63,869 nucleotides of DNA, filler included, from Reclinomonas americana ATCC 50394 (GCA_048213135.1; 6 parts of 5 records of this genome joined end to end with filler, not necessarily neighbours in it), one strand, 5' to 3'; numbered from the whole stretch's first letter, positions 1,180 through 55,188 are shown. Notes: a model not told the origin generated them from the letters alone. Numbers and translations: made by a program.

Positions 1180-4100
1180 TCAATCGTCGTCAGCCAATAG
1201 CAGCGGTGTGTGCTCACCGGCACCGTCAGCCCGCCGCGCGCCCTGCTGAATCTGGATGGACGAGCCGGCACGTACACCATCTGCAAGCTGCGCCTGTGCT
1301 CGTGCATCCCACCGGTGCACGTCGTGCAATTGCACCTCGTCGCCGGCCTCCTCCACCTCGATAATCTTCAAAAACACCTCCTCCAGCGTCGTGCACGAGA
1401 GACCGTAGCTGTCGACTTGCAACTCGTCGCGCCGCCGATCGAGCTCGGCCAGGAAGCGACCATACTCGCCCACGGCGTCCAGCGGCAGCAGAAAGAGAGA
1501 CTCGGCGCCACGCGAGCTCAGCACCTGGCAGCCTGTGTGTCTCACGGGCCGTCAGCGCAGGCGCCTAAGATAGAATGCAGTAATCGACAAACCGACAATG
1601 GAAGTGGTGACAAAGGTGCGCAGTGCTGATGTGTTGGCGCCTGGTCTTGTGACCACCTCCAGATAGTAGCCGAGCCCGAATCTGTCGACCAAGTACGGCG
1701 GGGGTAAATACTCTCTCATGACGGATTTCCTCGCACAAATGCACGCAACTGCTGCTTGAGTTCCATGGAGGTACCGAAGCACTTGAGCGATCCGTGCGAC
1801 ATGATGGCAATATAATCGGCCAGCAAATCGGCCTCCTCCATGCTGTGCGTGGTGAGGAGAATGATTCGATCCTGTTTCATGCGCTGCAGCAGCGCCCAGA
1901 TCTGCCGCCTTGATCCCGGATCGACACCGGTGGAGCACTCGTCGAGGACCACCACTCGCGGATTGCCGACAAAGGCAATGATCGTCGACAGGCGGCGCTT
2001 CATGCCACCCGAGAACGTCTCCGTGAAGCGGTCAATGTGCTCCTCCAGGCTCACCTATGACACCAATAAATGTCAAACGGCGGAGAGACGGGGACTGGAG
2101 CGAGAAGTTGCGTCACCTGGCGCAGATACTGGAGAATCTCCTCGCGCGACAGCCGGTGGCCCTTGATGGCGCCGTACAGAGCGACGTGTTCACCCGCCGT
2201 GAGCTTGCCAAACAGCACATCGTGCTGCGAGGGCCACACAATGAATGATGCGAGACGTATAAGATGCATGAGAGAGAGAGAACACGCGTACCTGCGGGCA
2301 CACGCCCAGCATTTGCCGAATGTGCTCCATCTGGTGCGTGATGGAGTAACCGAGGAGGTGTGCGTCGCCCGACGAGGGCGGGTAGAGACCAGTGAGCACG
2401 TGGAGTGTGGTGGACTTGCCGGCGCCTGCGTGACTGCTNNNNNNNNNNNNNNNNNNNNTTTAGCAACATTGGCTCCGTCGGTGAGCAGTACAAGGTGTAC
2501 TGGGCGTTGATCTGGCTGCCCTTGAACTGCGTCATCTACTGGATCATTTTGTGGTATCTCAGCAAGACGTGGAAAGGTGGGAGGTGTTGCAGCACGAAGT
2601 GGTGATGATGTTGCATGGATGTCCTCACGCTCTCTACCTCTCTCTTGTGTGCGTGCAGGCGAGTTTGGCACCGCTCTCAGCCCGCTGTTCTTCCTCAAGC
2701 CGTCGTACTGGCGTGGAGCGCTCAAGCGCAGCATGCTGGTGGATGCTGTTGCGTACTCGGTTGACAAGAGAGACGAAGAGAGAGATGTACAGAGTGATCT
2801 CACTGTGTGGGTGGGTGGGAAAACAGGAGGACGGTGCCGGACTGGAGATTGAGAACCTGCGCAAGGTGTTCTCCAAGGGCTGCTGCCACCGGCGACAGGA
2901 GACGGTGGCCGTGCGCGGTCTCACGCTGCATGTCAACCAGGGCGAGATTCTGGCTCTGCTTGGGCACAATGGTGTGTTGGGGAAGGGAGGAAAAGGGGGA
3001 GGGGGGGAGAGAGAGAGAGATGATTATGTGCAAGAGAGAGGTGTGAGCGAGCTCTGACTGNNNNNNNNNNNNNNNNNNNNNNNNNNNNNNNNNNNNNNNN
3101 NNNNNNNNNNNNNNNNNNNNNNNNNNNNNNNNNNNNNNNNNNNNNNNNNNNNNNNNNNNNNNNNNNNNNNNNNNNNNNNNNNNNNNNNNNNNNNNNNNNN
3201 NNNNNNNNNNNNNNNNNNNNNNNNNNNNNNNNNNNNNNNNNNNNNNNNNNNNNNNNNNNNNNNNNNNNNNNNNNNNNNNNNNNNNNNNNNNNNNNNNNNN
3301 NNNNNNNNNNNNNNNNNNNNNNNNNNNNNNNNNNNNNNNNNNNNNNNNNNNNNNNNNNNNNNNNNNNNNNNNNNNNNNNNNNNNNNNNNNNNNNNNNNNN
3401 NNNNNNNNNNNNNNNNNNNNNNNNNNNNNNNNNNNNNNNNNNNNNNNNNNNNNNNNNNNNNNNNNNNNNNNNNNNNNNNNNNNNNNNNNNNNNNNNNNNN
3501 NNNNNNNNNNNNNNNNNNNNNNNNNNNACACCACTTGGTGTCGCACAGGGACTGCTGATGATGGGCTGCTCGGACAATGCGTACTGGCTGTCGTGGATGA
3601 TTGTGCAGTCGATCACGCTCCTCCTCCCGATCCTGATCTTCATGGCGCTGGCGTACGGCTTCTCCTGCATCAAGCACAGCAATTTCCTGCTGGTCATCTA
3701 CATGCTGTTCTTCTACACGCTCAGCGTGGTCATCCTCGGCCTCATTCTCAGCATCTTTTTCGACACGCCTCGCGCTGCCGCCTCCGGCTCCTCCTTCCTG
3801 GCCATTTTCTCGTGTGGCATCTACGCCCTCATGCACTACTACGTCTTCAACCACGTCGGCAACGGCCTCAAGAACCTCTTCTCCATTCTCTCGCCAGTGG
3901 CGTTTGGTGAGGCGTGGTTCGAGATGGCGAGTCTGGAGACGGTGCACGACGCAGGCATCACCNNNNNNNNNNNNNNNNNNNNNNNNNNNNNNNNNNNNNN
4001 NNNNNNNNNNNNNNNNNNNNNNNNNNNNNNNNNNNNNNNNNNNNNNNNNNNNNNNNNNNNNNNNNNNNNNNNNNNNNNNNNNNNNNNNNNNNNNNNNNNN

Positions 4101-53717: not shown

Positions 53718-55188
53718 ATGTCCGCCATGTTGTCCGCTGCCATTCAACATCGAATGTCATTCACAGAGCGCTCGGCGCGGCGCCCCAGCGCCGCCACGCT
53801 CATCCTCACCTCGTCGCCCGACAGCAGCGCCGCCGGCAGCTCACCCTCCGTCCGCGCCGCCGTCGCCGCCGTCTTTGCCGCAAGTGACTCACCCTCCACT
53901 CCACCCTCCGGCTCCTCCTCCTCCTCCTCACGCACACTCGGCGGCAGCCGCTGGCATCGCCGCTCCATGCGCACCGCACTCAGTCCATCCATGATCGCCG
54001 CCGGCATTGCAGCCGAGGCGGCGCTCATGTCAGAGGAGTCATCATCGTTGTCCTCAGTAGCTGCGGCGTCATCATCGCCAATGCTGCCAAAGGACGAGGA
54101 CGCGCCACGTTTGTTTGGCTCCAGCGGCGGCGGAGTGGAAACGTCGCCACAAGCGTCGCCTCAAGGCTCGCCCGTGCTGACTGCTGCATCAGCTGCTTCC
54201 GCCGTCTCCGGTGCTGCTGTTGCTGGTGCGCCGGGGAGCCCCGGAGATGAGCAGGCCACTGGTGCATCACCGCGTACGCAGAGAGCGCATTGGTCGTCGA
54301 GAGGTGAGATTCGCGCGCTCACACAAGTGTTGTCTGGGTGTTGACATGGCGGGACTCAAACACACACGCACACACGCACACACTCACTCACTCACTCTCT
54401 CTCTCTCTCTCTCACACACACTCACTCACTCACTCACTCACTCACTCACTCTTCCTCATACGCACACATACACACTCTTTCTCTCTCACACTTACACTCT
54501 CACACACGCACTCTCTCTCTCTCACTGGNNNNNNNNNNNNNNNNNNNNNNNNNNNNNNNNNNNNNNNNNNNNNNNNNNNNNNNNNNNNNNNNNNNNNNNN
54601 NNNNNNNNNNNNNNNNNNNNNNNNNNNNNNNNNNNNNNNNNNNNNNNNNNCACACACACACACACTCCTCTCTCTTTCTTGTGTGTGTGTGAGCATTGGG
54701 TGATTGATGGCGATGATTTGATCGACAGAAAATCTTCCGACTGTACGCTCCTTTGCGATTTTGTTCTTCATTGTCATCGCACGCCGCCGCCGCCGTTGGC
54801 TTTCTTCTTACACAACGCTTGGTTTACATTAGCGCGAACGGGGTCGTCGGCGGCGTCGTACAATCGGCGCAATCAGAGCATTGTGATGCCGAAGGGGCAG
54901 ATGAATGTGATGAATGAGTTGCGCGCGGAGATGCAGCGGTTGTTGAAGGAGAACGAGGAGCTGCATAGACGCGTGGAGCAGAATGCCGAGTTGGAGAGCG
55001 AGCTGAAGAATGCCAGTCGTTGCGTGCGGGGCGAGGAGGAGGATGGAGAGTGTGTGTGTGTGACACGTGCTGACAACTCTTGATACGTGTGTGTGTGTAG
55101 TGTATGGCTTGCACTTGGCGCAGCGGGTGGATGAGTTGACGAGCATGTACGACGAGTGCAAGACATCGTATGATTCAGAGCGCGATCA
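53718..55188 (+). CDS. Low-complexity N-terminus plus coiled coil with a CC1-box-like motif (3' partial)
   Basis: Ser/Ala-rich exon; NELRAEMQRLLKENEEL...ELESELKNAS/LYGLHLAQRVDEL. Confidence 0.6.

Follow-up and report, generated by a model that had tools for sequence, protein, structure and literature searches.

We propose, with moderate confidence, that the introns in a 63,869-base stretch of DNA from Reclinomonas americana ATCC 50394 (GCA_048213135.1), hereafter the window, carry two classes of 5' splice site that are handled by one machinery, and that donors of the smaller class pair with the U1 small nuclear RNA (snRNA) in a register shifted by one base (+1). Both classes are defined by the intron side only: ordinary donors have G at +5, whereas shifted donors combine T at +3 with G at +6 and lack G at +5, i.e., the motif GTT[G/T]CG with G at +6 in place of +5. 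What is directly seen is that the two classes exist, that the consensus of the shifted class is slid, that its donors have lost the preference for G at the last exon base (-1), and that branch and acceptor signals are common to both. These observations fit a model in which U1 itself would read the shifted donors, in the shifted register.

All results refer to introns predicted computationally in this one 64-kb window. Because the claim concerns the last exon base, the intron caller, purpose-built for this analysis, never uses exon-side bases. The caller runs a local dynamic programme on a 3-periodic order-2 coding score, and each intron receives a score from an intron-side model of the donor (+1 to +10, a two-component mixture), a branch and acceptor model and a length term; versions accepting any GT with any AG, or penalizing introns too lightly (509 introns), were discarded. 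In the window 148 introns were called, with a sharp length mode at 55-85 nucleotides (nt) and with branch-like CTCAC, CTGAC or CTGAT about 10-27 nt upstream of an acceptor that is mostly CAG. Shifted donors make up 29 of them (about 20%), ordinary donors 97 and others 22. A filter on length and a YAG acceptor leaves 127 introns (28 shifted, 83 ordinary), and a stricter set of 80 holds introns of 45-140 nt with a YAG acceptor and a coding score >3 on both sides, whose retention breaks the frame. When every GT was scored equally (flat donor model), GTTGCGT was still the commonest donor heptamer, in 12 of 133 introns of 45-140 nt, with an additional 3 GTTGCGA and 3 GTTTCGT, and therefore the shifted class is not a product of the caller's seeds.

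The class of a donor tracks its last exon base, as an earlier note on this DNA had claimed. G occupies -1 in 4 of 29 shifted donors compared to 64 of 97 ordinary donors (Fisher p=9.8e-7) or 73 of 119 of all other introns (Fisher p=5.6e-6), and in the stricter set in 1/21 compared to 39/52 (Fisher p=2e-8). The 29 shifted donors follow A 13 times, T 7 times, C 5 times and G 4 times. By manual tally the note had placed about 27 of 31 shifted donors after a base other than G, and the independent count by the caller, 25 of 29, agrees with it. Three of the G-preceded exceptions it had named (10580, 15981 and 43761) were recovered, the fourth (43526) is ambiguous, and one, 42392, had been overlooked. 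Two ordinary donors that it gave as lacking G at -1, cgc/GTGAGTG at 22706 and gaa/GTGCGTG at 23111, are as described. The sites are listed below, with a slash between the last three exon bases and the intron.

1682..1749, minus strand: shifted intron, gca/GTTGCGTG, 68 nt, phase 2
2748..2826, plus strand: shifted intron, gct/GTTGCGTA, 79 nt, phase 0
4773..4836, minus strand: shifted intron, tct/GTTGCGTG, 64 nt, phase 1
10580..10651, plus strand: shifted intron with G at -1, ggg/GTTGCGTC, 72 nt, Mo25-like gene; junction covered by the Mo25 profile
12428..12486, minus strand: shifted intron, cca/GTTGCGAT, 59 nt, kinesin-1 gene; junction covered by the Kinesin profile and the homologue alignment
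12631..12695, minus strand: shifted intron, atc/GTTGCGCA, 65 nt, kinesin-1 gene; junction covered by the homologue alignment
12850..12919, minus strand: shifted intron, cga/GTTGCGTG, 70 nt, kinesin-1 gene; junction in a variable loop
15096..15160, plus strand: shifted intron, tca/GTTGCGCG, 65 nt, WD40 gene
15981..16054, plus strand: variant of the shifted class with G at -1, gag/GTTTCGTC, 74 nt, WD40 gene
17642..17723, plus strand: variant of the shifted class, cga/GTTTCGTT, 82 nt
20313..20378, plus strand: variant of the shifted class, aga/GTTGAGTT, 66 nt, the sole one with A at +5
20533..20590, plus strand: shifted intron, gat/GTTGCGTG, 58 nt, DUF4349 gene; junction covered by the Pfam profile
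22974..23040, plus strand: shifted intron, cga/GTTGCGTC, 67 nt, RRM / RBM39-like gene
23424..23489, plus strand: shifted intron, caa/GTTGCGTG, 66 nt
23798..23869, plus strand: shifted intron, gct/GTTGCGTG, 72 nt
24862..24925, minus strand: shifted intron, ctc/GTTGCGTT, 64 nt
25297..25365, minus strand: shifted intron, cca/GTTGCGAT, 69 nt
28597..28661, minus strand: shifted intron, gga/GTTGCGTG, 65 nt
33098..33158, minus strand: variant of the shifted class, ctt/GTTTCGCT, 61 nt
33522..33592, minus strand: shifted intron, tac/GTTGCGAT, 71 nt
34896..34957, minus strand: shifted intron, aca/GTTGCGTG, 62 nt, upstream coding score weak
35663..35730, minus strand: shifted intron, gca/GTTGCGTG, 68 nt
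37492..37552, minus strand: variant of the shifted class, acc/GTTTCGTT, 61 nt
41319..41382, minus strand: shifted intron, tgt/GTTGCGTC, 64 nt, KBP-like gene; junction covered by the KBP_C profile
42325..42392, minus strand: shifted intron with G at -1, tgg/GTTGCGTG, 68 nt; the exception absent from the earlier list
43697..43761, minus strand: shifted intron with G at -1, gag/GTTGCGTC, 65 nt
46391..46458, plus strand: shifted intron, ggc/GTTGCGTA, 68 nt, downstream coding score weak
48821..48891, minus strand: variant of the shifted class, gaa/GTTTCGTG, 71 nt, protein kinase gene
52693..52758, minus strand: shifted intron, tct/GTTGCGTT, 66 nt, LRR gene, upstream coding score weak
55019..55100, plus strand: likely shifted intron, gtc/GTTGCGTG, ending in TGTAG; the caller took the in-frame GTGTGT at 55052
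50606..50616, minus strand: likely shifted donor with G at -1, tgg/GTTGCGTAAG; the intron enters an N gap
43465..43526, minus strand: ambiguous, atg/GTTTCGTT of the earlier note (G at -1) or ttc/GTGTGTTT of the caller at 43517
22706..22787, plus strand: ordinary donor without G at -1, cgc/GTGAGTGC
23111..23181, plus strand: ordinary donor without G at -1, gaa/GTGCGTGA

At both 55019 and 43526 the caller preferred a neighbouring in-frame GT; the GTGTGT at 43517 lies 9 nt downstream of 43526, in the same frame and with a common acceptor. The intron at 15981 (plus strand) seems to end in AAG (16052-16054) rather than YAG, and the joined translation, made by eye, gives a WD40-like motif.

T at +3 alone is not the cause of the change at -1, as ordinary-register donors that carry T at +3 (mostly GTTTGT and GTTCGT) keep the G rule, 8 of 11 following G versus 3 of 28 shifted donors (p=3e-4). 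A bias of the shifted donors in intron phase was considered and rejected (phase 2 in 10/28 versus 15/83 of the ordinary donors, p=0.07).

Nor is G shunned at the exon end of the shifted class. It precedes 10 of the 58 non-donor GTT[G/T]CG sites in the window compared to 4 of the 29 shifted donors (p=0.77), and a coding null matched for phase and context expects 7.8 where 4 of 29 are found (p=0.08); being at background level, G at -1 of shifted donors is merely unselected. A plain null of codon-position composition does suggest active avoidance, with 3 of 28 observed against 9.0 expected (p=0.009), a possibility that we rejected because the signal is lost on the two matched nulls. The earlier note had reasoned that coding constraints prevent G at these exon ends and that the shifted donor is a rule that frees them. 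With G at background this rationale is not supported, and in addition eight of the ten phase-0 shifted donors end in a codon that has a G-ending synonym in the standard genetic code, and yet none of the ten ends in G and four end in A, which speaks against a coding constraint barring G.

Instead of no preference, the exon end of the shifted class seems to carry a different one, with A mildly favoured. A is found at -1 of 13 of 29 shifted donors where the phase- and context-matched coding null expects 5.0 (p=5e-4). Its frequency there (13/28) exceeds that of A at -2 of ordinary donors (16/83, p=0.01), and among the bases other than G at -1 it accounts for 13 of 25 in the shifted class versus 5 of 23 in the ordinary class (p=0.04).

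The consensus of the shifted donors is that of the ordinary donors moved by one base. Positions +3 to +7 of ordinary donors (n=83) read G (66%), C or T (40% and 37%, together 77%), G, T (77%) and G (43%), and positions +4 to +8 of shifted donors (n=28) read G (86%), C (96%), G, T (79%) and G (43%). The shifted motif is much stricter, as C is present at +5 in 27 of 28 shifted donors compared to C at +4 in 33 of 83 ordinary donors (p=3e-8), and A is found at +4 in 0 of 28. Of the GTNGCG donors obtained with the flat model, 15 have T as N and one has A, whereas none has C or G. The window contains GTAGCG 14 times, GTCGCG 67 times, GTGGCG 100 times and GTTGCG 64 times; T at +3 is near-exclusive although GTGGCG and GTCGCG are commoner, indicating that T at +3 is specifically needed in shifted donors, a requirement that fits pairing of +3 U with A7 of U1 better than a free bulge. 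Introns of the two classes share branch-like CTCAC and CTGAC motifs and CAG acceptors, and their median lengths are 66 nt (shifted) and 71 nt (ordinary; p=0.26). The profile of the ordinary donors, with C or T at +4, G at +3 and no A preference at -2, hints that the U1 of this organism may differ from the standard ACUUAC pairing sequence.

Five junctions of the shifted class (20533, 10580, 41382, 12486 and 12695) are fixed by protein homology. The DUF4349 Pfam profile runs from position 116 to 117 over junction 20533; the Mo25 profile passes over 10580 from position 129 through one residue and a split codon to 132; KBP_C passes over 41382 from 299 through a split codon to 301, and Kinesin over 12486 from 193 through a split codon to 195. 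In an alignment of the spliced kinesin with seven kinesin-1 homologues, junctions 12695 and 12486 are free of gaps and lie inside highly conserved blocks, whereas junction 12919 falls in a variable loop of kinesin, where homology does not fix the position. In the same kinesin-1 gene, 13018-13095 (minus strand) is an in-frame, stop-free intron of 78 nt, atg/GTGCGCAC ... CTCACACAG, that the caller translated as an insertion of 26 residues absent from 7/7 homologues, showing that frame-based callers overlook introns of this kind.

Several other identities of the shifted introns were considered and rejected. Reading the donors as GC-AG introns (GTT/GCGT) would leave an extra codon, yet at 12486 and 12695 the kinesin aligns with its homologues without any added residue, and the Pfam profiles continue exactly at 20533, 10580, 41382 and 12486. 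U12-type introns are recognized by the donor (A/G)TATCCTT and a TCCTTAAC-like branch site, whereas here the donor is GTT[G/T]CG and the branch-like sequences are CTCAC, CTGAC and CTCAT, as in ordinary introns. An introner-like mobile family was rejected on an all-versus-all blastn comparison of the 127 filtered introns, which gave 12 matches of 14-20 nt, none defining a family of shifted introns; the shifted introns are not copies of one another.

We propose that ordinary donors (G/GTGCGT and relatives) would occupy the usual U1 register, in which the base at -1 pairs with C9 and G would be selected there. In shifted donors (N/GTTGCG[T]) the intron's own +1 G would come to lie opposite C9, +2 U would face C8 as a mismatch, +3 U would pair with A7, and +4 to +8 (GCGUG) would take the places of +3 to +7 of an ordinary donor, while cleavage would remain at GU. 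As the last exon base would then face U10, G would no longer be selected and A would be mildly favoured. Where the intron side of a donor is weak, the exon tends to end in AG or CAG (in the class of other donors, A at -2 in 7/16 and CAG in 4/16), and on this basis positions 9-11 of U1 behave as canonical.

Duplex folding with ViennaRNA, in which model sites were paired with the U1 5' end printed in PMC4856993 and with two hypothetical variants having G at position 5 (G5), is consistent with this proposal when A is at -1. The shifted register is then the best one for the published end and for both G5 variants, with C-2:G11, A-1:U10 and G+1:C9 paired, U+2 mismatched with C8, and pairing from U+3:A7 onward. 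With G at -1 a register with a bulge at +2/+3 is preferred at about equal energy, and with C or U at -1 pairing is confined to the 3' helix and the duplex is about 3 kcal/mol weaker. The earlier note had suggested that the +1 G of the intron takes over the -1 pairing position on U1, so that N/GTTGCGT mimics G/GTGCGT; the slid profile, the control with T at +3 and the shifted duplex with A at -1 are in favour of this register, leaving the coding-constraint rationale as the part of the idea that is not supported.

Several observations weigh against the proposed shift. The enrichment of A at -1 reaches only p=0.09 when compared to non-donor GTT[G/T]CG sites (15/58). Paired with the canonical U1 end, a shifted donor is predicted to form only a weak duplex (-2.4 kcal/mol versus -6.1 kcal/mol for an ordinary donor), and the structures obtained with the other bases at -1 are weak with this end too. 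The C at +5 would mismatch canonical U1 and yet is present in 27 of 28 shifted donors; the model therefore needs a changed U1 or another reader. In folding with G5 U1, G at -1 is about as good as A (-8.2 versus -8.3 kcal/mol), yet the shifted donors are not enriched in G. Among ordinary donors A is not preferred at -2 (16/83), so that the notion of -1 in shifted donors mimicking -2 in ordinary ones holds only if the weaker shifted helix needs an extra pair. Finally, the evidence is wholly computational, the introns themselves being predictions from a single 64-kb window.

As C is near-invariant at +5 of shifted donors, and C or T is preferred at +4 of ordinary donors, the donor sequences suggest that the U1 of this organism may have G, and not pseudouridine, at position 5, i.e., a 5' end of the form ACG[C/U]ACCU. 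The strict C at +5 thus amounts to a sharp prediction on the 5' end of the organism's U1. If there is a single U1 5' end and it reads ACUUACCU, the shifted register would operate with a mismatched C at +5 and the strictness of this C would need another reader. A single ACG(C/U)ACCU end would speak for one U1 with two registers, whereas two types of U1, one of them ACGCAACU-like, would favour a dedicated snRNA for the shifted class.

Among the alternatives the one that survives best, although we consider it unlikely, invokes no shift of register: a strong GTTGCGT(G), read in some other manner or by a loose U1, would make exon-side pairing unnecessary. Such compensation between exon and intron occurs within 5' splice sites generally, and the ordinary donors of the window show it, as those lacking G at -1 have more intron-side matches (3.26 versus 2.40 of 4, p=4e-4); that G at -1 of shifted donors is at background, and not below it, is also what this explanation would have. 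Yet among the strongest ordinary donors, those matching at 4/4 intron-side positions, 10 of 20 still have G at -1 compared to 3 of 28 in the shifted class (p=0.004). Compensation alone yields no strict motif slid by one base, and both the one-base slide of the consensus and the preference for A at -1 are left unexplained.

A second, dedicated U1-like snRNA, or a U1 variant with a 5' end fully complementary to (A)GUUGCGU, could serve the shifted class in the way that U11 serves U12-type donors, and we regard this as rather doubtful. It would account for the strictness of the shifted motif (C at +5, G in 86% and no A at +4), and A at -1 would lengthen a perfect helix; co-evolution of U1 5' ends with donor motifs is reported for Entamoeba and Mastigamoeba (bioRxiv 10.1101/2022.06.08.495308). 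However, one U1 carrying G at position 5 accounts for the strictness just as well, and the two classes share branch, acceptor and length, unlike the U12 system. No such RNA was found in the window, the Rfam scan of which covered the window only and returned no U1 or other snRNA at gathering score and, at E<=1, only microsatellite-like chance matches to microRNAs and small Cajal body-specific RNAs. The specific form of this alternative assigns the shifted class (about one fifth of introns) a separate U1 variant, complementary to AGUUGCGU, and gives the ordinary U1 G5 as well; it is in our estimation likewise doubtful.

The shifted donors can also be drawn in a bulged register, in which +1 G and +2 U pair normally, one U of +2/+3 bulges, GCGU pairs with U1 positions 6-3, and the base at -1 still faces C9. 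ViennaRNA gives this as the best structure when -1 is G, at about the energy of the shifted register, and a +2/+3 bulge is among the registers in Table 3 of PMC4856993, with 68 human sites predicted. Nevertheless, bulging predicts that G at -1 should help, whereas G is at background (4/29) and A is enriched, and the bulged base need not be U, yet 15 flat-model GTNGCG donors have T at +3, one has A, and C and G are absent. The lack of a G preference, the preference for A and the need for U at +3 together favour the shifted register over the bulge, which we judge distinctly improbable. That the class is an artefact of intron prediction, or of the selection of sites in the earlier note, is very improbable indeed: the introns are predictions, and the caller missed at least the one at 13018-13095 and made some doubtful long calls, but it is blind to exon ends, the flat donor model yields the same motif, five junctions are fixed by homology, and the effect is larger in the stricter set.

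The window is interrupted by 29 N gaps, its GC content varies between about 0.42 and 0.61 over 4-kb segments, and its genes are dense, on both strands, with many short introns. Pfam matches on its open frames include kinesin, ABC transporter, WD40, protein kinase and RabGAP-TBC, as well as KBP, ATP12, pirin, papain-type protease and RRM. A plus-strand chain of calls at 8364-10248, with introns of 231-276 nt, overlaps with a minus-strand WD40 gene supported by Pfam (8491-9477) and is probably spurious, whereas its Mo25-like 3' part (10482-10802, plus strand) is real. Many introns contain or adjoin long microsatellites of (GT)n, (GA)n or G/A-rich sequence, e.g., at 26383-26669, 34560-34673 and 52211-52370. 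Two adjacent, intron-less WD40 repeat genes (58358-59271 and 59572-60206, plus strand) are 82% identical over 213 residues and resemble a tandem duplication in an otherwise intron-rich region; as these are the sole paralogues in the window, it offers no usable paralogous introns. In a collection of 5.8 billion proteins the closest kinesins are at most 72% identical over the motor exon and the closest ATP12 chaperones at most 43%, and the window's own proteins did not turn up with either query; on these comparisons the lineage is probably poorly sampled and unannotated.

U12-type introns have a strict second donor motif and no G preference at -1, and in these respects, as a second donor class, the shifted donors resemble them; they differ in that the shifted donor is not RTATCCTT-like, the branch is that of ordinary introns and the frequency is far higher. 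Human sites read in the shifted register are of the GUUAAGU type, whereas the donors described here are GUUGCG(U). The likeness to them lies in GU followed by U at +3, a downstream consensus one base on, +1 G opposite C9, an exon end freed of the requirement for G, and cleavage kept at GU, which here is a prediction. The mechanism of the +1-shifted U1 register is already known: as described in PMC4856993 and PMC9311317, it is experimentally established for atypical human 5' splice sites, and the former credits it to Roca and Krainer 2009. It is rare in humans, where the validated noncanonical registers, all taken together, account for 1.5% of 5' splice sites according to PMC4856993, compared to 29 of 148 predicted introns here. 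The +2/+3 bulge register (Roca et al. 2012, as given in PMC4856993 Table 3) accommodates the same sequences with a bulged U, but its predicted benefit of G at -1 and its tolerance of any bulged base are absent here.

The protists treated by Roy and Bowser (bioRxiv 10.1101/2022.06.08.495308) are similar in having GC-rich genomes with G/GTGCG-type donors. There the U1 5' ends are AACAAAC in Entamoeba and ACGUAC in Mastigamoeba, a precedent for G5 that would explain both why ordinary donors favour C or T at +4 and why C is near-invariant at +5 in the shifted class, and the standard U1 is kept in Thecamonas and Micromonas despite C at +4. The part of the work drawn on describes single donor consensuses, with no second, shifted class. 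A limited literature search found neither a GTTGCGT/GUUGCGU donor class nor a shifted-register class outside humans. What appears to be new is therefore a shifted class that comprises about one fifth of introns and has its own strict GTTGCG motif and a probable preference for A at -1.

If a fifth of the introns do use the slid donor, the shifted register would be an established element of a splice code found in nature, and no mere peculiarity of a few human sites. Even if no second snRNA is involved, the genome would be the first to have a noncanonical U1 register as a main class; should the class have a U1 variant of its own, that variant would be a second major-type RNA for 5' splice-site recognition. 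In such a genome, gene finders that rely on a single donor matrix including G at -1 would place about 20% of donors wrongly or overlook them. Such a genome would also provide hundreds of natural cases in which binding of U1 is uncoupled from the choice of the cleavage site.

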